43,646 bases of DNA from an uncultured Candidatus Saccharibacteria bacterium (GTDB taxonomy: Bacteria; Patescibacteriota; WWE3; UBA101185; UBA10185). Below are positions 1,541-29,591 of the stretch, piece after piece. The translations under genes and the position numbers were made by a program. The notes under the pieces are model-generated. The model saw nothing but the letters and a program-made list of their open reading frames with translations. It made no database searches and had not been told where the DNA came from. Position 1 is the stretch's first letter, and every line of letters starts with the position of its first letter. The stretch lies in assembly GCA_964574405.1 (NCBI GenBank), contig CAZNNN010000003.1, positions 11,035 to 54,680 of the forward strand, written 5' to 3'.

Positions 1541-2908
1541 ATGGTTTATGGTAATTATCAATTATCACTCCACAACCCCTGGTGGGAGGAGGGCTATAAT
1601 ATGGATGCAGACTCCAAGTTGATGGAGCTTTCGGGGTTAAAATATCGCTACATCCACCCTTTAATAAATGAATATCCAGTGGAAAAAGATGTGGTTTTTA
1701 CTTTGCGTGGTCCAAGAAGGGTAGGCAAAACTACGCTTATCAAGTTAATTATTAAAAAACTGGTCGACCAAAAAATTCCCAGAAAAAACCTTTTTTATCT
1801 CCCGTGCGATAGAATTGAGCATTTTAACGAGCTTTACAATGCAGTAAAGGATTATATAGACAGGCAAAGAGTTACCTCCAAAGGTAGAATATTCATCTTT
1901 TTAGATGAAGTGTCATATGTAAAAGAATGGCAAAGAGCCGTAAAGTCGTTATGGGATGACGATATTGTAAAAAACTGTACTTTGCTAACAACTGGGTCAA
2001 ACGCAGTGGATTTAAAAGTATCGTCCGAGAGATTACCCGGAAGAACCGGAAAATATTTTAACAGCGAAAAGCTATTTCTGCCGTTAGATTTCTTTGAATT
2101 TTATAAACTTTTAAATCCAGAATGGATAGGGAAGTTTGAGCTTAAAGATCTGCCAAAGTTTAAAAAATATTTGGAAGACTTTATGTTGGTGGGGGGTTTT
2201 CCGCAGGTGATAAATGAATACTATTCAAACGGCTTTATTGCGTTAGAAACTTACGAAACCTACACCAAGTGGGTTGATGATGACATCCATAAGAACGGTA
2301 AATCCGTGGAAAGTGCCTACCGACTTTTTAAGGAGTTGGATAAAACACTCACAAGTAGGGTAAGTTACACCAATTTAGCAAAGGATACTTTGTTTGCGTC
2401 GCAACAGAGTGCGCAGGACTATTTAGAGCTTTTTGATCTTATGTATCTATGTTTTAAGTGTAATTGCTTTCTTTTGGAGTCGCGAAAAATTGATCCCAAA
2501 AAGAACAAGAAATTCTATTTTGTAGACCCGTTTATCCATAATGCGCTTTTGGCTAAGCAGGACGGGTTTTTAGATGATGCTTTTAATTACTCACGGAAGC
2601 TGTTGGCAGGGGAGAATGTTGCCTCCACAAGGTTTGAGGAGGTGGTGGGAAGCTTGCTACAAAGGCGATTTACCCGGCTTGACTACGGGGTGCTGGCAGG
2701 AGATGCTTTGGAGGTTGACTTTGTGGGTTTTGACCACGGAAAGTACCAGCTTTTTGAATGTAAATACGGCAAAACGGGTTTGCACAATTATCTAAAATTC
2801 CAAAAACTTTTTGAATCATTTGGGGGTTTGGATATCCTAGTTCCTGGCGTAGCCAATGTGGAAGAACGCTCGTTCTTTACACTCGTAGGTAATAGTTTTA
2901 CGGCGTAA
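1541..2908 (+). CDS. AAA+ ATPase of the COG1373 type (AAA_14 plus DUF4143-like C-terminus)
   Basis: N-terminal NPWW motif, Walker A GPRRVGKTT, Walker B IFIFLDEV. Start moved from 1451 to ATG 1541 because 1451-1495 overlaps tRNA-Ala and TTGACA(1506)-17-TATCAC(1529)-6-ATG fits a promoter. Confidence 0.8.
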   Translation: MVYGNYQLSLHNPWWEEGYNMDADSKLMELSGLKYRYIHPLINEYPVEKDVVFTLRGPRRVGKTTLIKLIIKKLVDQKIPRKNLFYLPCDRIEHFNELYNAVKDYIDRQRVTSKGRIFIFLDEVSYVKEWQRAVKSLWDDDIVKNCTLLTTGSNAVDLKVSSERLPGRTGKYFNSEKLFLPLDFFEFYKLLNPEWIGKFELKDLPKFKKYLEDFMLVGGFPQVINEYYSNGFIALETYETYTKWVDDDIHKNGKSVESAYRLFKELDKTLTSRVSYTNLAKDTLFASQQSAQDYLELFDLMYLCFKCNCFLLESRKIDPKKNKKFYFVDPFIHNALLAKQDGFLDDAFNYSRKLLAGENVASTRFEEVVGSLLQRRFTRLDYGVLAGDALEVDFVGFDHGKYQLFECKYGKTGLHNYLKFQKLFESFGGLDILVPGVANVEERSFFTLVGNSFTA

Positions 2909-5114
2909 CAGGCGTTCCAGGCTTGGTTAACGGCTCTTGAACAACCGGAGCTTTTGGTGCGGTAGTTCCAGCCTTTTCAAGGGCTTCCACGCTTGGTTTA
3001 GCTTTTGCTTCCGCATCTGCCGTTTCAGCAATTAGTTTGTTAACCGCTTCTAGATCCAAAGCTACTTGTTTATAATCTGGACTATCTTTTTCCACCAAAC
3101 TTTGTGCCACTTCAAATTCAGCCTTTGCGTCGGTATAGGCTTTAAGTTTAAACAGGGAATAGGCTAGGTTATAGCGAGCATTAGCATAGTCGCTCTTAAG
3201 ATTAACCGCCTGCTTAAACAAATTACCAGCAGATAAGTAATCTTCCTTGGCAAAATAAATTCCGCCCAGCTCTACGCGTAAAACAGGGTTAGTTGGGTCA
3301 AGCTGAATGGCGGTGTTGTAAGCCTGAATAGCAAATTGATCTGCATCTTTGGCTGCTGGAATTAAGAATTTGTAAATTTGTGCTCTGGCTACCCAGTTTG
3401 CACTGTCAAGAGGATTTAGAGTTTCAGAAGCAAATTTAATGTTTCGTAACGCCTGTGCCAAAAGATTTTGAGCGGTGGTTTTTTCTTGGTCGCTCAAGTC
3501 CTGTTTGGAGCTTAAGGATTGTGCTAACGCCAAATTAGTGTCGGCATAAATCCTATGATACTCGCTCCTTTGCGCATTAATAGAAATGGCTTTTACTTGG
3601 TAGTCGTACGACTTGGAGACATCCTGCTTGGAGGCCGAGGTTATAGCTTTGCGCATGTAGTACTCTGGCGCGTACTGTAGGTAAGCTTGGTATATGCCAA
3701 ACCCTGCCAACGCCAAAATAGGAATAGATATGATATATTGTAACAATTCTTTTTTAGCTAAAATAGGACTTTCTATAATGCTGACGCCTTCGGAGTCGGT
3801 GCGTGATTCCAAAGAAAGTGTCCACAATTTAGCCCATGATTTGTTAGTATTTAACGCCGATTCTGCTGTTAAAAGTCCCATTAAAGTAAACATAAGAAAA
3901 GCCAGTTGAAAGCTGGTGTAGCCCAGCAGTAGGGCAGTAAGTGAGGCTATAAGCCCAGCAGAAAGCACCACAGAAAGTCCTTTATACGCGTCGTTAACCT
4001 TAATAGATTTAAATGCCAATCTAATAAGGGTAGAAATTAAGGCAAGATATGCCAAAAGTCCAAAAATACCCAGCGTAGAGATGATGTTAAAGACCTCATT
4101 GGCTGGTTTGTCAAAATTAACATTCCAAGTGGGGGTATAGTTTTGGCTAAGCGTTTTGTATCTAGGGTAATTTAGATGAAAAGTACCTACACCCGAACCA
4201 AAAATGGGGAAATCACGCAAAGTGGTGGACGACACAATCCACGATTCTTGTACGGAGGGCAGAACTTCTTTTGGGTAGGCTCTCTGCAGAACGAACCTTG
4301 TTTGTGGAACTATAAAAAACAACGCTATAAAGGTTACTAACGCTCCTACAGCAGGAAAGAGGTACATTTTACTTTTAGCCACGCTTTCACTGGGTGACTT
4401 TAACACCATAAGTCCTGCCAGCAGGGTAGCCCCTGCTGTAAAAGCTACACCGCCAAAAACCGCCAGAGCTACAAAGTCTAAAATAGAGATAGCTAAAGTT
4501 ACGCTTTTTTTAACGGGCGATTTCATGTTAATTGTTAACGAGGCGCTAACTATTAAACCCACCAGTAAGGATGTGGCAAGGCTAGTACTAGACCCGGCAA
4601 GAAGAAAACCCCTTTGATTAAACAGATGCAAAAAGGGGATGGTGAGCCCGTAGTAATTTACCAGGGAAAGTAAAGCTGGAACGGCTGTTCCTACTGAAAT
4701 GCCCCACAAAACTACTCTTATTTTTCTTGCCGAGTCTACATTGGTTGAGACCGCGTAATAGTAAAAGTAAAGGGCAACAAACCCAAATAGGCTAGGAAAC
4801 CAGCGTCCATAAGAGCCAAACAGGCTAGAAGTTTTATCTAGGGAGGTTACAGCGGAAAGGATAAAGCTTACTAACACAAGAAGTAACGCAAAATCCACTG
4901 GCGATTTAGTAAAGTAAACTTTCTTTTCGACTATCATTTTGGCGCACCAAAGTACTGCCATAGCTACTGTGGCTGCTACAAAAAAGTAAAGCTTGTTAAA
5001 TTCAAAGTACTCGTAGGTTATGGGTAAAAAGAATATTGGTGTTAAAAATGTTACCAACACAATTAGCCCAAATATTAAGTTGTTAAGTTTGTCCAGGACA
5101 GTATTTTTGTTCAT
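2898..5114 (-). CDS. Polytopic O-antigen ligase/polymerase-like (Wzy_C-type) membrane protein with C-terminal TPR repeats
   Basis: More than 10 hydrophobic helices in the N-terminal 480 aa. The C-terminal 250 aa carry TPR-like repeats (AIQAYNTAIQLDPTNP, NLFKQAVNLKSDYANARYNLAYSLFKLKAY). The 3' end overlaps the convergent ATPase gene by 11 nt. Confidence 0.7.
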   Translation of the reverse strand: MNKNTVLDKLNNLIFGLIVLVTFLTPIFFLPITYEYFEFNKLYFFVAATVAMAVLWCAKMIVEKKVYFTKSPVDFALLLVLVSFILSAVTSLDKTSSLFGSYGRWFPSLFGFVALYFYYYAVSTNVDSARKIRVVLWGISVGTAVPALLSLVNYYGLTIPFLHLFNQRGFLLAGSSTSLATSLLVGLIVSASLTINMKSPVKKSVTLAISILDFVALAVFGGVAFTAGATLLAGLMVLKSPSESVAKSKMYLFPAVGALVTFIALFFIVPQTRFVLQRAYPKEVLPSVQESWIVSSTTLRDFPIFGSGVGTFHLNYPRYKTLSQNYTPTWNVNFDKPANEVFNIISTLGIFGLLAYLALISTLIRLAFKSIKVNDAYKGLSVVLSAGLIASLTALLLGYTSFQLAFLMFTLMGLLTAESALNTNKSWAKLWTLSLESRTDSEGVSIIESPILAKKELLQYIISIPILALAGFGIYQAYLQYAPEYYMRKAITSASKQDVSKSYDYQVKAISINAQRSEYHRIYADTNLALAQSLSSKQDLSDQEKTTAQNLLAQALRNIKFASETLNPLDSANWVARAQIYKFLIPAAKDADQFAIQAYNTAIQLDPTNPVLRVELGGIYFAKEDYLSAGNLFKQAVNLKSDYANARYNLAYSLFKLKAYTDAKAEFEVAQSLVEKDSPDYKQVALDLEAVNKLIAETADAEAKAKPSVEALEKAGTTAPKAPVVQEPLTKPGTPVTP

Positions 5115-5206
5115 GGTCTAACAATTACATATCGCAAAGAGTTTGTCAAGGGGTATTTTCCCGTAACGGTAGCAAGGTATAAATGTTGTAACAACGGGAC
5201 TTTCTT

Positions 5207-5872
5207 CTAATTAGAGATCCACCAGCTAAATTCTGCATCGTAAGAAGTTGGGGCGTCCAGTTCTAGATAAAAGCCTTCAAAAGGAACCTTAGAGGAAATC
5301 CAATATCTTACCGCGGGGGAATAGTTTTGATTAAAGGTAATGTTTATTCTGGAATTAAGTTTTACGCTTTCACTTTTAATATACACTCTGCTTTGATCCT
5401 TTGGCACATAGGTGGTACCACTATCGGTAAGGTATTTTTTATCTAGCTCCAAAGTCCTTTTAATTAAATCTGATTTTGACTTGCCAATAGGTAAAAAGCC
5501 CAAACCAGCAAAAACCGTGAGGCAAAAAAGAACAAAGAGGGTTATTTTTAGTATTTTAGGAGAGGGAGTTAAGATTCTTGCTACCTTTATAGCATTAGCT
5601 CCGGTGTTGGCAGAAAGCCCCCGTATTTTTTTGGCCACTGCCTCGTTACTTAAGCCCAAACCTTTAAGTTTTTCAATTTCTAAAAGGGTATCCATGGCGG
5701 AAGCAGGATAATGGCCTGTTACCTCACTGCCGTTAACTTTTCTTTGCATGTGAGGCAAAAGCCCTAGTTTGGTGTAGTATCTTAACCGATTATAGGGATC
5801 GCCCTTGCCAAAGTCTACCCCTTTTTTTACCGCCAGTTCAATAAATTTTTCTATCGAGAGTAATTCTTCCAT
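5207..5872 (-). CDS. Membrane-anchored MerR-like HTH protein (N-terminal HTH, one TM helix, about 90-aa extracytoplasmic domain)
   Basis: The N-terminus NRLRYYTKLGLLP resembles the MerR recognition-helix region. The hydrophobic helix is ITLFVLFCLTVFAGLGFLPI. TATAAT lies on the minus strand at 5887-5892. Confidence 0.55.
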   Translation of the reverse strand: MEELLSIEKFIELAVKKGVDFGKGDPYNRLRYYTKLGLLPHMQRKVNGSEVTGHYPASAMDTLLEIEKLKGLGLSNEAVAKKIRGLSANTGANAIKVARILTPSPKILKITLFVLFCLTVFAGLGFLPIGKSKSDLIKRTLELDKKYLTDSGTTYVPKDQSRVYIKSESVKLNSRINITFNQNYSPAVRYWISSKVPFEGFYLELDAPTSYDAEFSWWISN

Positions 5873-5895
5873 AGTTTTATGCCCGCATTATACTA

Positions 5896-5925
5896 AATTC
5901 TAGTTAAACTAGAGAATACCATCTT
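5896..5925 (+). promoter_or_regulatory. 30-nt conserved element with dyad TCTAGT-N3-ACTAGA upstream of dprA (copy 1)
   Basis: aattctagttaaactagagaataccatctt matches 11595-11624 at 26/30 positions in the same orientation. Confidence 0.5.
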
Positions 5926-5939
5926 TACAAAGCTTTTTA

Positions 5940-6881
5940 ATGGGCTACATTTTCACCATGTTTAAGGATGCACAAGTTAGGTCAATAGATCGCTCATCGG
6001 TACAGTACCCAAAGCTGTTAACGGAAATACCTGACGCACCAAAGACGCTGTATTATTTGGGCGACTTTAAAGAGTCGCTTTTTAAAAACACTTTAGCAGT
6101 GGTAGGGAGTCGTGCGGTTACCTTATACGGCGAATGGGTGGTAAATAACCTTGTTAAAGAGGTAGCCCGCCAGGGTATAACAATAGTATCGGGCTTTATG
6201 TATGGGGTGGATGCGCTGGCTCACAAAGCGGCTTTAGAGGTGGCAGGTTCAACTATTGCGGTTATGGCTGGAGGCGTAGATCAGATTTTTCCTAATTATC
6301 AGGAGCAACTTTATTGGGACATTGTAGCCAAGGGTTTAGTGGTTTCTGAATTTTACAAAGAACCTGAATTGGGAAATTGGATGTTTGCTAAGCGCAACCG
6401 TATTGTAGCGGGGCTTTCTCACGCTACTTTAGTAGTGGAAGCGGCGGAAAAAAGTGGCTCGCTCATTACCGCTTGTTACACTAAGGAGTACGGCAGACAA
6501 CTCTTAACAGTACCCGCTAATTTAAATTCCAAAAATGCTGTTGGTACCACACAACTGTATAGAGGTGGGGCAAAGATGGTTACCTGTGCGGACGATATTC
6601 TAGCATTATTTTCGTATAATTACCGCGTTAATATTTCTGATGCGGTAAATAGGCGGTTATTATTAGGAGAAGCCGATGGGGATGCTCGGCAAGACGAAAA
6701 CCCGCAGTATCAGGTTAACAGTCCAGAAAATATTTTAAATCTGCTTAAGTTGGAATCGCTAAGTGCGGACGAAATCACTTTAAAGTTAGGTATTTTGTCG
6801 TCAGATGTCCTTAAATATCTTACTGGATTAAGTTTGCAGGGGCAGGTGGGGGAGAAAGGCGGGCGGTATTATGCTTGTTAA
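5940..6881 (+). CDS. dprA: DNA processing protein DprA (Smf)
   Basis: Rossmann-like DprA motifs: VVGSRAVTLYG, GFMYGVDALAHKAAL, IAVMAGGVD, RNRIVAGLS, VVEAAEKSGSLITA. Possible alternative start at 5958. Confidence 0.9.
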   Translation: MGYIFTMFKDAQVRSIDRSSVQYPKLLTEIPDAPKTLYYLGDFKESLFKNTLAVVGSRAVTLYGEWVVNNLVKEVARQGITIVSGFMYGVDALAHKAALEVAGSTIAVMAGGVDQIFPNYQEQLYWDIVAKGLVVSEFYKEPELGNWMFAKRNRIVAGLSHATLVVEAAEKSGSLITACYTKEYGRQLLTVPANLNSKNAVGTTQLYRGGAKMVTCADDILALFSYNYRVNISDAVNRRLLLGEADGDARQDENPQYQVNSPENILNLLKLESLSADEITLKLGILSSDVLKYLTGLSLQGQVGEKGGRYYAC

Positions 6882-8891: not shown

Positions 8892-11381
8892 TTAATTAGT
8901 AGTAACGCTCACTATTTTGTTTTTTACCACTAAGAATTTTCCGATGGTCTTACTTTCAAAGTACTTCGTTAGTTTAACATCGTTGAGTATTTTTCCTCTG
9001 AGGCTATTTTCGTCATCGTTGACTGTTGTCTCAATTTGTCCGCGAACTTTACCGTTTATCATAACAGGCAAAAGCCTGGAGGTGTTTATATTTTGAGTTT
9101 TGTCAAACTCTGGCCACGCTTGCCAATGCACGCTGTTGTTCTTGTCCCAGGTAGCGAAACCGTTAATTTCTTGCCACAGCTCTTCTGCTACAAAGGGCAT
9201 AAAGGGGGCAATTACTTTTATAAAGCCTTTCCAGGTTTCAATATCAATTGTTTCTGCCTTTTTAAGGTCGTTTACAAAAATCATAATCTCACTTATGGCT
9301 GTATTCATTTTTAAGGCTTCGCACATTCCCGTGATATTTTTTACCATTTTGTTGTAGAACTTTTTAATTACTTCCGACTCGTTGTCTTGTTTAACTTTTT
9401 CTTTAAGCTCGTAAATGTTTTTAACTAGTCGCCACATGGCTTTTATAGTGTTTTCGTTCCAGGGGAAGGTGGCGTCATACGGACCTAAAAATGCTATGGC
9501 GAGCCTGGCTGCATCGGCACCGTAATTTTCTACCAGATCGGAGGGCATAACTACATTGCCGTATCTCTTGGACATTTTTTTACCGTCCGGACCAAGCAAA
9601 AGCCCGCCCGTCATCCGCCATTTATAAGGTTCTGGTGTGGGAACAAGACCTTTGTCGTACAAAAATCTATGCCAAAAGCGCGAATATAGCAGGTGGACTG
9701 TTGTGTGACCGCCGTCCCCAAAATACTTGTCCACCGGAAGCCAGTATTTTAACTTCTCATAATCGGCAAAGGCGTTATTGTTGTGCGGATCAATATATCT
9801 TAAAAAGTACCAGCTAGAACCTGCCCAGGTTGGCATGGTTTGAGTTTCTCTTTTAGCAGGTTTTCCTTGGCTGTCCACGGTATTTACCCAATCTGTGAGT
9901 TTAGATAGGGGAGGGGAGCCATCCGCCTGAGGCTGAAAATCTTTAGAAGAGGGAAGTTTAAGGGGGAGTTTTTTGTGAACTTCTTCCATGTTTTCTGTGG
10001 AAACAATAGCTTCTATATTGCCGTTTTCTTTATAAACTAGGGGAATAGGTTCGCCCCAGTAGCGTTGCCTGGAAAAAATCCAATCGCGCATCTTATAGGT
10101 GGTGGCTTTTTTACCTTTATTTTCTTTCTCTAATCGGTTTATTGCTATCGCGGAAAAGTTTTGGGATGCTGTTCCGTTATATTCCACAGAATTAACCATT
10201 GTACCAACGCCTGTGTGAATAGTACCCTCCGCTGTTTTTTCTGTTGGTTTAATTACTTCCACAACATCCAGGCCGTATTTTCTGGCAAAGGCAAAATCTC
10301 TCTCGTCGTGGGCAGGAACTCCCATAATAGATCCTGTTGCATAGTCCATTAAAATATAATCTGCTACAAAAATGGGAATCTTGCGCGTCACCTCGTCAAA
10401 AGGATGTTTGGCAAAAATCCCTTTAATCTGCATACCGGATTTTTCTTTTTCTGCCTGCCTTTCCATGTCGGAGCGGTCTTTTGCCTTGTCCACATACGCC
10501 AAAACTTCATCTTTGTTTGTCGACGCATCTGCTAGAGTTTTAACTGCAGGATGTTCTGGCGCAATAGCCAAAAAAGTTATTCCAAACAAGGTATCGGGTC
10601 GAGTTGTAAAAACTTTTAGTTGATTAATTTCTTTACCCGTTTCATCTGTTATTTTAAACTCCACTTCCGCCCCCTCACTTTTACCAATCCAATTTTTTTG
10701 CGCAGTCTTTATATAATCGGGAAAGTTTGTTTCTTCCAGTCCAGCTAAGAGTTTTTGGGCGTATCTAGGCATCTTTAGCACCCATTGTTTAAATATTTTT
10801 CTTTCTACACGGTTGCCATCTCTTTCTGCAATTTTCTCGCCGTTAGATCCGTTTATTACTTCCTCTTCTGCTAGAATTCCCAGCGTTTTGGACCACCAAA
10901 CAGAGGTTTCTTTAAACTCTGCCAAACCGGCTTCATACAATTTTAAAAAGATCCATTGCGTCCATTTATAAAAATCAGGTTCGCAGGTATTAATTTCTCG
11001 ATTCCAGTCAAAGCTGTATCCCATATCCTGGAGGGATTTTTTAAATCCTTTGGACAATTCGGCAATAACTTCCTGCGGTGTTTTGTTGGCTTTTATAGCG
11101 TAACCCTCTGTGGGTAGTCCAAAAGAGTCCCAGCCCATGGGATATAAAACATTGTAGCCCCGCATCTTTAGAAACTTTGAGTACATGTCTGGTACGGTAT
11201 AACGCATCATGTGTCCGGCGTGTAAGTAAGGACCGGAAGGGTAGGGGAGTTCAGCTAAAATGTATTTTTTAGGTTTGGGGGAAAAGTCCACCGCCTCGTA
11301 AATGTTGTCCGCATACCATTTTTCTTTCCAAATAGCTTCAATTTTTTTATGATCGTACTTAATATTTTTTTCCTGCGACAT
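8892..11381 (-). CDS. leuS: Leucyl-tRNA synthetase
   Basis: Class I motifs HAGH (YLHAGHMMRY) and KMSKR, CP1 editing domain. Length 829 aa. Confidence 0.97.
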   Translation of the reverse strand: MSQEKNIKYDHKKIEAIWKEKWYADNIYEAVDFSPKPKKYILAELPYPSGPYLHAGHMMRYTVPDMYSKFLKMRGYNVLYPMGWDSFGLPTEGYAIKANKTPQEVIAELSKGFKKSLQDMGYSFDWNREINTCEPDFYKWTQWIFLKLYEAGLAEFKETSVWWSKTLGILAEEEVINGSNGEKIAERDGNRVERKIFKQWVLKMPRYAQKLLAGLEETNFPDYIKTAQKNWIGKSEGAEVEFKITDETGKEINQLKVFTTRPDTLFGITFLAIAPEHPAVKTLADASTNKDEVLAYVDKAKDRSDMERQAEKEKSGMQIKGIFAKHPFDEVTRKIPIFVADYILMDYATGSIMGVPAHDERDFAFARKYGLDVVEVIKPTEKTAEGTIHTGVGTMVNSVEYNGTASQNFSAIAINRLEKENKGKKATTYKMRDWIFSRQRYWGEPIPLVYKENGNIEAIVSTENMEEVHKKLPLKLPSSKDFQPQADGSPPLSKLTDWVNTVDSQGKPAKRETQTMPTWAGSSWYFLRYIDPHNNNAFADYEKLKYWLPVDKYFGDGGHTTVHLLYSRFWHRFLYDKGLVPTPEPYKWRMTGGLLLGPDGKKMSKRYGNVVMPSDLVENYGADAARLAIAFLGPYDATFPWNENTIKAMWRLVKNIYELKEKVKQDNESEVIKKFYNKMVKNITGMCEALKMNTAISEIMIFVNDLKKAETIDIETWKGFIKVIAPFMPFVAEELWQEINGFATWDKNNSVHWQAWPEFDKTQNINTSRLLPVMINGKVRGQIETTVNDDENSLRGKILNDVKLTKYFESKTIGKFLVVKNKIVSVTTN

Positions 11382-26698: not shown

Positions 26699-28183
26699 GT
26701 GAAAGCTAGTAACGGTAAGTTAAAAATATTGTTAGTGGCCGTGGAGTCATCGCCTTACGCAAGGGTGGGCGGTGTAGCATCTGTGGTTAGGTCTTTAGCC
26801 ACTTCTCTAAACAGTCTTGGGCATGACGCTAGAATACTTATCCCCAAATTTGGTTTCATCGACGAGAACTTATATAAAACGCAACTCGTTTTAGAGGGTC
26901 TAAAAGTGCCTACCAACGACCCCGCCAACCCCCATTTAGTTTGTAATGTTAAACAACATGAAAAGGACGGTATCATCACTTACTTCCTGGAGAACATGGA
27001 GTATTTTGAATTGCGAGCCAATGTTTACGGCTATACCGACGATCCTATTAGATGGGCTTTATTAAATAGGGGTGCGCTTGAGTTTGTTTTAAAAGGCGAC
27101 TTTCTACCAGATGTTATTCATTGTAACGATTGGCAGGGGGGCTTATTGCCAAACTACTTGCGTACGGAGTATAGAAATAATCCTCAACTTTCCAAAATCG
27201 CTACTGTTTATACAATTCATAATTTAAAATTTCAGGGCATGTTTGACCATAAAAATGTTTCGGAAATGGATTTTGACGATGGATGGTCTCCCGTTGCATC
27301 TTTCTTTGACCCCAGATTGTTAAAGCAAAACTTTATGAGAAGGGGAATCATCCACGCCGATATAGTAAGTACTGTGTCAAAAAGTTATGCTAAAGAGATA
27401 ACTACTCCGGAATATGGTGAGGGTTTGGATAAACTAATTACCGAGCTCAGGGAAAAAGTATTTGGAGTAGTAAATGGCATAGATTATCAGGAGATGGATT
27501 CATCAAAAGATACTTTGCTGGAAAAAAATTATGATATAAATTCCACACACCTAAGGGCATTTAATAAAGAGTCTCTGCAAAAGGAGTTTGACCTGGAGGT
27601 AAGCCGAGACATCCCAGTTTTTGGTTTTGTGGGGCGTTTGGATTCTCAAAAAGGCGTAGATCTTTTAGTATCGGTTTTAGAAAAAGTCCTCAAAAGATAC
27701 AATTTACAATTTGTTCAGGTGGGGGGTGGAGATGGTTGGTTAGTGGAGCTTTTGCAAAACCTTAAAAAATCGTTCCCCGATAAAGTTGGCGTTTACCCGT
27801 ACCCAAATTTTACTCTTCCACGACTTATTTTTGGGGGAAGCGATGTAGTTTTATATCCTTCCAGATTTGAGCCGTGTGGGGTGGTTCAACTAGAAGCTAT
27901 GCGTTACGGAGCTATTCCCTTAGTTAGGAGTGTTGGGGGATTAAAGGATACTGTTATGGAGTTTGACGCCATAACTCAAAAGGGAACTGGTTTTGTTTTT
28001 GATGACTTTGACGAATTTGCCCTGTATGGGGAAATTATTAGGGTCTTAGAGGTTTTTAAGAACAAACAGCTATGGAAAAAACTTCAGTTTAATGCTATGC
28101 GAGCCGATTTTAGCTGGGGATATAGTGCCAAAGAGTATGAAAAACTCTACATGCGCGCCCTAGAGGTTAGAGGTAAACATTAG
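26699..28183 (+). CDS. glgA: Glycogen/starch synthase (GT5), copy 1
   Basis: The N-terminus ILLVAVESSPYARVGGVASVV is a K-x-GGL variant with R. Also HCNDWQGG, TIHNLKFQG, C-terminal SRFEPCGVVQLEAMRYGAIP. GTG start. Confidence 0.85.
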   Translation: MKASNGKLKILLVAVESSPYARVGGVASVVRSLATSLNSLGHDARILIPKFGFIDENLYKTQLVLEGLKVPTNDPANPHLVCNVKQHEKDGIITYFLENMEYFELRANVYGYTDDPIRWALLNRGALEFVLKGDFLPDVIHCNDWQGGLLPNYLRTEYRNNPQLSKIATVYTIHNLKFQGMFDHKNVSEMDFDDGWSPVASFFDPRLLKQNFMRRGIIHADIVSTVSKSYAKEITTPEYGEGLDKLITELREKVFGVVNGIDYQEMDSSKDTLLEKNYDINSTHLRAFNKESLQKEFDLEVSRDIPVFGFVGRLDSQKGVDLLVSVLEKVLKRYNLQFVQVGGGDGWLVELLQNLKKSFPDKVGVYPYPNFTLPRLIFGGSDVVLYPSRFEPCGVVQLEAMRYGAIPLVRSVGGLKDTVMEFDAITQKGTGFVFDDFDEFALYGEIIRVLEVFKNKQLWKKLQFNAMRADFSWGYSAKEYEKLYMRALEVRGKH

Positions 28184-28206
28184 CGTTTTTCTTATTATAA
28201 CATCCT

Positions 28207-28235
28207 TTGACAAGATAGTCGGGTTGTAGTATAAT
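28207..28235 (+). promoter_or_regulatory. Consensus sigma70-type promoter TTGACA-17-TATAAT
   Basis: TTGACA 28207-28212, 17-nt spacer, TATAAT 28230-28235. The predicted TSS of about 28242 coincides with the base of the hairpin. Confidence 0.65.
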
Positions 28236-28242
28236 AGACCTG

Positions 28243-28331
28243 TTGCACACTCTAATCTGGAGCGGCCGCATTCTCATTCTGTGGGCAGGAGAGTGAGGAG
28301 AAACCGCTTCGGATTAGGTTGTGCAATTTTT
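28243..28331 (+). ncRNA. Candidate about 90-nt hairpin RNA (stand-alone sRNA or leader attenuator): 84-nt extended stem-loop plus U5
   Basis: Pairings read by hand: 28243-28249/28320-28326. 28252-28265/28304-28317 (14 bp, 2 G-U). 28271-28280/28290-28299 (10 bp, 2 G-U). 9-nt loop gtgggcagg, then TTTTT at 28327-28331. The G-U pairs work only on the plus strand. Confidence 0.45.
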
Positions 28332-28352
28332 ATATTCGTATACAATAGTCTT

Positions 28353-29591
28353 GTGAACCTTTGCTTATTGCTTCATTTTTATCAACCGTCCAACCAGTTT
28401 GGAGATGTTCTAAAAAAGGTTACGCAGGAGTGTTACATTCCTCTTATAAAGTCCATAAAAAATAACAAAAAAATAAAAATTACAGCAGACTTTCCATTAA
28501 GTCTTTTAGAACAACTGGACTGTTACGGCTTTGATTTTCTAATTAGAGATATTAAGGATCTAGTGGAAGCCGGTAGAATTGAACTTGCGGGAAGTGCTGC
28601 CTACCATCCCCTGCTTACAAAAATACCCCAGGATTTTGTAGATAAACAGATTATTTTAAACGAAAGTTCTTTAGCTTATTATTTTGGTGTTAACAAGGAT
28701 TTTGAGGGCGAAGAATGCTTTATGATTAAGGGTCTACGAGGCTTTTTTCCACCCGAAATGGCGATAAACAACCAAGTTTTAGAGACTTTGGGGGGTTTAG
28801 GTTACGATTGGATCTCGGTTGACGAATTCTGCTTGCCTAAAGAATCTCGCGATATTTTAGAGAATGGATTTATATATAGCCTTGGCAGTAAAACTCCTAA
28901 ACTGATAGTGAGAAGCCGAAGGCTCACTAACCTCATTTCTTTTAAACGAGATTTAGATAGGTCAGCCATTGTTACAGAAATTCTTAAAGGTTCGGCTGAT
29001 AAAATGGTTGCTTTAGATGCGGAAACTTTTGGTCATCATTACAAAGACGGGATTTATCTTTTTGAGTCCATAATTTCAGATATTTTTGAGAAAGGGGCTG
29101 AAGTTTCTACCATTACGGAAGCTATTCAAGGAGTTGAAGCCGTTAGTATTACACATTTAAACGAGACTACATGGAGTTCTACCGAGGCAGAGGTTTATCC
29201 TCTGTGGGAAAACAAAGCAAGTAAAGTTAACACTGCGTTGTGGTTTTTACAAAATGAAGTGCATACCGAGTTTGCCAGTAAATATCCGCTAGAAGCTCCG
29301 GAGTCTGCTAGTTCTCAAAACGGGGGAGTGCCGGTTTGGAAGCGTAGATACAGCGCAACTCCTCCCTTGTTAGACAATAGAACGCGTGTTGAGCTTGATA
29401 TGCTAAAGTTGCAACAAAGTGATCAATTTTGGTGGTCAACAGACGCAGATATGATGGGCAAGAAAAACTTTAGCAGGTATATGATTGACTCGGTTTTAGA
29501 TTACTATGTAGAGGCGGTAACGGCGCTAGGGTCTAACAAAGTACTGTTTGACAAAATTGACGAGATTAGAAATTTAATTAAGGACCAGTGA
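28353..29591 (+). CDS. Glycoside hydrolase family 57 protein (branching-enzyme-like), copy 1
   Basis: N-terminus LLLHFYQPSNQ, nucleophile region ALDAETFGHH. Start set at GTG 28353 because the track's 28281 extension lies inside the hairpin. TACAAT at 28341-28346 sits 6 nt upstream. Confidence 0.78.
   Translation: MNLCLLLHFYQPSNQFGDVLKKVTQECYIPLIKSIKNNKKIKITADFPLSLLEQLDCYGFDFLIRDIKDLVEAGRIELAGSAAYHPLLTKIPQDFVDKQIILNESSLAYYFGVNKDFEGEECFMIKGLRGFFPPEMAINNQVLETLGGLGYDWISVDEFCLPKESRDILENGFIYSLGSKTPKLIVRSRRLTNLISFKRDLDRSAIVTEILKGSADKMVALDAETFGHHYKDGIYLFESIISDIFEKGAEVSTITEAIQGVEAVSITHLNETTWSSTEAEVYPLWENKASKVNTALWFLQNEVHTEFASKYPLEAPESASSQNGGVPVWKRRYSATPPLLDNRTRVELDMLKLQQSDQFWWSTDADMMGKKNFSRYMIDSVLDYYVEAVTALGSNKVLFDKIDEIRNLIKDQ

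Follow-up and report, generated by a model that had tools for sequence, protein, structure and literature searches.

The bacterial small SRP RNA (4.5S, ffs, RF00169), of about 90–110 nt, is a single extended hairpin which is transcribed from a strong promoter, starts at the base of its own stem and combines variable, covarying helices with a conserved apex. 6S RNA forms a rod of about 150–200 nt with a large central bubble mimicking an open promoter. Enterobacterial sRNAs of the DapZ/MicL/SdhX type depend on Hfq, carry a single-stranded seed 5' of the terminator and are transcribed from promoters placed at the end of an upstream gene. In the HMP-PP (thiS) riboswitch, the lambda nut boxB/N system and the RAT sites of BglG/LicT, conserved nucleotides lie in or next to a terminator hairpin, and in the CsrB/RsmZ-CsrA systems non-coding RNAs bearing arrays of GGA loops are tied to glycogen genes. 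To our knowledge, very few non-coding RNAs have been described from the Candidate Phyla Radiation (CPR, Patescibacteria), although these bacteria account for a large part of bacterial diversity; they have so far resisted cultivation on their own, and their minimal cells use leaderless mRNAs and are devoid of the usual RNA chaperones.

The analyzed stretch of 43,646 nt (further referred to as the window) occupies positions 11035–54680 of contig C3 of a 732-kb, 98% complete genome (G000). Between its genes glgA1, encoding a starch/glycogen synthase (26699–28183, plus strand; Pfam Glyco_transf_5, 2.6e-66), and GH57a (28353–29591, plus strand; Pfam Glyco_hydro_57), which has a GTG start codon and leads the series GH57a-GH57b-glgA2-galT-like, there is a structured RNA, conserved and strand-specific, that has a strong promoter of its own (P1) and an essentially invariant loop. 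The order HTH, glgA1, [P1-RNA], GH57a, GH57b, glgA2, galT-like is kept in 30 of the 31 genome loci and in all 34 metagenome loci, the neighbours at the latter being called among the loci that extend far enough to show the gene. In all 65 sufficiently long genome and metagenome loci, the RNA is co-oriented with GH57a (or a GH57a-like gene) and located directly 5' of it. In the class's other families, glgA1 abuts or overlaps GH57a and no hairpin is present; as the two genes are joined directly there, the P1-hairpin module is a family-level insertion or innovation at this junction. The glucan cluster is headed by an excisionase/MerR-type HTH gene in the family of the window (f1) and in family f2, while in four more distant families of the class such a gene is not located 5' of glgA1 (L150–L152 and L157 versus L153–L156). 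This HTH protein was considered as a co-evolving partner of the RNA and rejected, since its gene is also found in f2 and in the f1 genome G030, both lacking the RNA. As a separate observation on the same genome, its 16S rRNA gene (contig C28, minus strand, approximately 2787–6221) spans about 3.4 kb from the 515 region to the 3' end, versus about 1 kb usually, which implies that it carries large insertions, as known for rRNA genes of CPR bacteria.

P1 (28207–28235, plus strand) consists of TTGACA (28207–28212), a 17-bp spacer and TATAAT (28230–28235), i.e., a 12/12 match to the consensus of a sigma-70-type promoter. A preceding sequence-only reading had named this site, with the right coordinates, as the best promoter match of the window, and it turned out to be the sole 12/12 site among 54 promoter-like sites in the 18 kb between 20000 and 38000. 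The hairpin starts at G28242, the seventh nucleotide after its -10 box. Fold, covariance model and covariation together support an RNA with a predicted length of about 90 nt (28242–28331, plus strand), composed of an extended hairpin (28242–28327) and a U-run (28327–28331). The hairpin comprises helices of 8, 15 and 10 bp, plus one U-G pair within the loop (34 bp in total), interrupted only at a 1-nt mismatch and at an internal loop that is small and asymmetric. Its basal part pairs the 5' arm 28242–28265 with 28304–28327, and the apical stem-loop (28271–28299) is made of the 10-bp helix and a 9-nt loop, GUGGGCAGG (28281–28289). The three-helix architecture, the 9-nt loop and the TTTTT following the stem had all been recognized in the sequence-only reading and were confirmed here; its limits of 28243–28326 and helix lengths of 7, 14 and 10 bp had to be corrected, as each basal helix is one pair longer, and its four G-U pairs became five to seven on recounting, depending on how terminal and in-loop pairs are treated.

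The minimum free energy of the structure is -47.7 to -48.2 kcal/mol, versus -28.3 ± 3.3 kcal/mol for 200 dinucleotide shuffles, none of which was as good (z = -5.95), and the G+C content of the hairpin is 52%, as compared with 41% for the window. When folded with flanking sequences, 17 homologues gave a single hairpin only, in both MFE and centroid predictions. No competing or antiterminator fold appeared in foldings that included upstream sequence, and no unpaired stretch of the transcript is left to compete. Among the homologues, RNA length ranges from 86 to 115 nt, and several of them (L026, L029, and L040 of genus g10, and L031) carry an extra hairpin of 20–25 nt on the 5' side of the internal loop that separates the apical helix from the basal part. 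This site is the expansion point (variable region) of this RNA. The hairpin is present in a single copy in its genome, which rules out a repeat or mobile element.

BLASTN searches found the element in three congeners and a core of about 22 nt in many further genera, and scanning one genome of each GTDB species for the exact pattern identified 31 true loci and one chance match, located in a coding region of Francisellaceae. Aligned with one another, 28 sequences share a consensus hairpin that comprises 34 pairs, and a covariance model (R1) was built on the same alignment. In this alignment, 94.3% of paired cells are complementary, versus 75% after shuffling and 42–54% when the partners were slid. 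Double changes were recorded in 28 of 34 pairs, including all 24 pairs of the basal part, and the covariation score was 0.659 versus 0.282, with none of 500 shuffles reaching as high a value. Moreover, paired columns contain 107 G-U/U-G combinations against 13 A-C/C-A ones, and R1 scores the homologues at 55–85 bits on the forward and 29–48 bits on the reverse strand (78.6 versus 31.2 bits for the RNA of the window). The G-U excess and the strand asymmetry of the model scores place the constraint on plus-strand RNA and not on DNA, and for the same reasons a DNA-level palindrome or operator was discarded. Conservation and covariation had been named in advance as the test of whether a functional structured RNA is present, and the homologues amply show both.

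Of the 86 genomes of family f1 (candidate division WWE3), 72 contain a single R1 match each, as opposed to none of 48 genomes from the class's other families. One of the apparent absences in f1 (G122) is an artefact, as the homologous stretch (L111, G122:C44:5340–5900) is masked with N and flanked by P1 and the GH57a start. Ten f1 genomes have neither the RNA nor the GH57/glucan cluster, which makes the RNA dispensable; since the RNA and GH57 are physically linked, their joint absence is weak evidence of a functional tie.

Across homologues, the promoter and the loop (NNGGGCAGG) hardly vary. Matches found by the model are free of the bias of the exact pattern and show which loop positions can vary: the apical loop reads (G/U)(U/A)GGGCAGG, with a core, GGGCAGG, that is constant in every homologue seen and with variation confined to its first two positions (G or U, followed by U, or A in G027). 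The pairs closing the loop covary (U-A to C-G; C-G to U-A; U-A to G-C, A-U or G-U). That the loop stays constant while its stem covaries suggests a partner which recognizes a specific sequence. Regarding its possible nature, no conserved complementary site resembling CCTGCCCA was found within about 8 kb in the 31 loci, and a local antisense target was therefore rejected; searches of 16S and 23S rRNA for a loop complement gave nothing convincing. A 9-nt complement, CCCTGCCCACCC, is present in the dnaA 5' leader (G000 C7:5690–5720), 12 nt before the dnaA start, where DnaA boxes are followed by a conserved C-rich motif, YTGCCCY (L115–L138). In 30 relatives, the complementarity is mostly limited to a common core of 5–6 nt, and the motif also occurs in G010 and G030, which lack the RNA. 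These two observations reduce the dnaA leader to a weak lead.

In the case of P1, 48 distinct homologues were compared. Exact TTGACA with a 17-bp spacer occurs in 44 of them; 15 score 12/12, 22 score 11/12, and 43 score at least 10/12, with the stem usually beginning 5–13 nt after the -10 box. Many genera (e.g., L146–L149) carry CCTATA within the spacer, whereas the genus of the window has a different spacer. In six of six family genomes tested, TTGACANNCCTATA was found exactly once per genome and only at the promoter of the RNA, which suggests a dedicated operator within the P1 spacer. Downstream of the hairpin, the window has what defines an intrinsic (Rho-independent) terminator, i.e., a G+C-rich stem (ending at 28327) followed by UUUUU. 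Among the 48 homologues, 34 (71%), for which a 3' end is thereby predicted, have at least five U in the 9 nt after the stem and 14 (about 29%; e.g., L051, L031, and L171) lack a U-run; where no usable U-run is present, P1 transcripts should continue into GH57a.

GH57a has a promoter of its own (P2). The sequence-only reading placed a second possible promoter (TTGTGC at 28319–28324 and TACAAT at 28341–28346) 6 nt before GTG 28353, which is as stated, and TACAAT (plus strand), the -10 box of a leaderless promoter, proved to be conserved. In 41 of 42 loci, a -10 hexamer matching in at least five of six positions precedes the GH57a start by 6–9 nt (6–7 nt in 38 of 42); it is a perfect TATAAT in 24 loci. 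The start codon is GTG in 32 of the 42 loci, and no Shine-Dalgarno sequence precedes GH57a. P2 is retained in G030, the f1 member devoid of the RNA. The suspicion that the open reading frame extension 28281–28352 is non-coding was borne out, as the 42 homologous loci start GH57a about six codons before the LHxYQP motif, i.e., at the position of GTG 28353; a coding extension from GTG 28281 is unconserved and runs into in-frame stops in homologues. Furthermore, two genera, G088 (locus L113, G088:C3:14300–16100) and G027 (locus L112, G027:C14:780600–782100), have lost glgA1, GH57b, glgA2 and galT, and their GH57a-like ORFs (401 and 273 aa, respectively) are strongly diverged and devoid of the DAETFGHH motif, while the RNA (84 and 74 bits, respectively), P1 and P2 are intact. 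At its N-terminus, the ORF located upstream carries a separate LHxYxxP-like motif.

With respect to the identity of the RNA, Rfam 15 detected only tRNAs in the window at the gathering threshold. In E-value mode, the region and ten homologues gave only unrelated sub-threshold matches to miRNA, snoRNA and lncRNA families, the miRNA-precursor family differing from homologue to homologue. In the sequence-only reading, the hairpin could be matched to neither SRP RNA nor 6S RNA nor any known riboswitch class, which agrees with the Rfam results, in which no family matches. RF00013 (6S RNA) did not match the region, and the 86–115-nt RNAs have no large central bubble. A regular-expression search of the genome revealed no ORF with a CsrA signature, and a role as a CsrA sponge was rejected, as the genome is without CsrA, the RNA has a single loop, and the GGA within it is not invariant (GGG in L096). 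The literature searched on WWE3 or Patescibacteria in connection with SRP or non-coding RNA contained nothing relevant.

The search for SRP components requires a separate comment. Neither RF00169 nor RF01854 detected an SRP RNA anywhere in the genome, and RF00169 gave none in 61 relatives. The Ffh M domain (PF02978) is absent from the genome, and the SRP54-type GTPase domain of Ffh/FtsY (PF00448) gives weak P-loop matches only; a regular-expression search for Ffh/FtsY was negative, and TBLASTN with an Ffh G-domain sequence as the probe gave a best E-value of 0.49. No real SRP54-domain match was obtained in 61 genomes of the class (weak P-loop matches only) or in any of the 101 genomes of a phylum sample. 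As far as sequence searches can tell, an SRP system is undetectable in this 98% complete genome. CPR genomes are known to carry ffh and ftsY, which conflicts with the apparent phylum-wide absence; the absence, if real even for WWE3 alone, would be remarkable.

Several explanations of the element were weighed. The favoured one, to which we assign a slightly better than even chance, is an RNA of about 90 nt with its own promoter, whose stem doubles as a terminator and whose loop binds a partner. A discrete product of this size is inferred because the transcript consists of one hairpin, most homologues have a U-run, and GH57a has its own leaderless promoter. The main competing explanation, a rather unlikely one in our assessment, is a cis-acting leader or attenuator, in which the operon would be driven by P1 as its strong promoter, with the hairpin serving as a conditional terminator or 5' stabilizer; a factor recognizing the loop would then set termination against read-through, like N at boxB, with P2 providing a basal level only. 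The element always lies directly 5' of GH57a in the same orientation in the 65 loci, and this constant place could be explained by cis-regulation, or simply by the conserved order of the whole cluster. Further points in line with a leader are the 14 of 48 homologues without a U-run, where read-through seems unavoidable, the unique conserved spacer motif, which suggests that P1 is regulated, and the start of the hairpin at or near +1, as in 5' stabilizers. The available RNA-run data, low-depth contigs of relatives only and with scattered ends, include several that span the promoter and the hairpin-GH57a junction; three of them, from relatives, cross the junction and one starts not more than 2 nt from the predicted P1 start, but since such contigs include the promoter, they could represent DNA carry-over as well as read-through. 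A leader is, on the other hand, difficult to reconcile with a transcript that is one hairpin, for which no alternative (antiterminator) fold is possible, and with the near-perfect leaderless promoter of GH57a in 41 of 42 loci. As GH57a lacks a Shine-Dalgarno sequence and has this promoter, a read-through transcript, with an internal GTG and no ribosome-binding site, is poorly suited to its translation. The distance from the 3' end of the RNA to the GH57a start codon varies from 6 to 167 nt across loci, which argues against a fixed leader geometry, and G030 has GH57a and P2 without the element. Both a stand-alone sRNA and an attenuating leader had been proposed in the sequence-only reading, and the evidence leans to the former, given the conserved leaderless promoter of GH57a and the lack of room for an antiterminator.

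The same junction could also be read as mainly a strong terminator, insulating GH57a from glgA1 read-through once GH57a had turned leaderless, with a functionless RNA product. The direct contact of glgA1 with GH57a in the hairpin-less families, the position of the f1 hairpin exactly between glgA1 and the leaderless P2, and a stem of -48 kcal/mol with a U-run, which would make a strong terminator, are consistent with insulation; it seems improbable, though, as it leaves unexplained a consensus promoter right before the hairpin in more than 90% of homologues and an invariant loop of 7–8 nt with covarying closing pairs, and G030 manages without the hairpin. A further explanation, to which we give about as little credence, is that the RNA is paired exclusively with the GH57a-like protein (in a ribonucleoprotein, or as an RNA strictly required for the product of that gene), selection then acting on this pair and not on the glucan pathway. 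It would explain G088 and G027, where the cluster and the catalytic DAETFGHH motif are lost but the RNA persists, together with its consensus promoter and a leaderless ORF resembling GH57a; we know of no precedent for a protein of glycoside-hydrolase fold working with a structured RNA. A trans-acting antisense RNA, with the loop kissing C-rich targets such as the dnaA 5' leader, is very improbable. Among the genomic 9-nt complements of the loop (CCTGCCCAC), one was noted that is intergenic, in the 5' leader of dnaA at a distance of 12 nt from its start, and YTGCCCY stands at the corresponding place in relatives; nevertheless, the shared core is of 5–6 nt in most relatives and the motif is kept in the RNA-less G010 and G030, one chance intergenic 9-mer match has a probability of about 0.25, and most of the other genomic complements are antisense to ORFs. 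Finally, a divergent 4.5S RNA missed by Rfam would account for the single extended hairpin (about 90 nt), its conserved apex and the strong promoter, in a genome where RF00169 and RF01854 found no other SRP RNA. This possibility is effectively refuted: RF00169 leaves the hairpin unmatched when 400 nt (28100–28500) are searched with E-values of up to 10, there is neither a GNRA tetraloop nor the symmetric-loop AGCA motif, the genome lacks an Ffh M domain and an SRP54-type GTPase, and the RNA is confined to one family and absent from ten or more of its members.

Returning to the favoured explanation of a separately transcribed small RNA, transcripts initiated at P1 would fold wholly into the hairpin, and the basal helix with the U-run would end both these transcripts and those coming in from glgA1. 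The resulting RNA of about 90 nt would be abundant and resistant to nucleases, and GH57a would be expressed apart from it, as a leaderless mRNA from P2. The invariant loop may be the working part, i.e., a sequence-specific docking site, carried by the long stem as by a rigid handle; a protein appears a likelier partner of the loop than a complementary RNA. As the RNA is never separated from a GH57a or GH57a-like gene, even where the rest of the cluster is missing, the partner or target is expected to bear on how that gene is expressed or functions. With a weak U-run, part of the P1 transcripts must extend into GH57a, and the element may also act in cis.

Such an RNA offers a case of carbon-storage regulation in minimal cells that is tractable in vitro. 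A protein partner of the loop would establish a new RNA-protein recognition pair; should the element be a conditional terminator, it would be a rare instance of regulated attenuation feeding a leaderless operon. About 50 distinct sequences, covariation of all basal pairs, the invariant loop, the consensus promoter and the fixed genomic context make the RNA ready for an entry in an RNA-family database.

Compared with the systems described above, the element shares with 4.5S RNA the single extended hairpin starting at the stem base downstream of a strong promoter, the variable covarying stems with a conserved apex and the presence once per genome. It differs in having no GNRA tetraloop, no symmetric or asymmetric loop motifs and no match to the covariance model, in residing in a host without detectable Ffh/FtsY, and in being dispensable and restricted to one family. 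With the DapZ/MicL/SdhX type it has in common a promoter at the end of the upstream gene, the link to a metabolic operon and a terminator hairpin that would end both the mRNA and the sRNA; here, however, there is only the hairpin, the conserved part is the loop, and we know of no Hfq-type chaperone in the host lineage. Similarly to the HMP-PP (thiS) riboswitch, boxB/N and RAT, conserved nucleotides are found in or next to a terminator hairpin that lies directly 5' of a sugar or metabolic operon, and the loop is a plausible recognition element. In contrast to them, there is no alternative pairing, no second helix and no Rfam match, and the downstream gene has its own leaderless promoter; as far as we know, a CAT/PRD antiterminator would not be expected in a genome of this kind. 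The tie to glycogen/glucan genes and the GGA-containing hairpin loop recall CsrB/RsmZ, from which the element differs by its one hairpin in place of an array of GGA loops, by the GGG substituting for GGA in L096 and by a host without a CsrA-like ORF. The element is a genuine new, previously uncatalogued RNA family of a familiar general kind, i.e., a small, promoter-driven hairpin RNA embedded in an operon.
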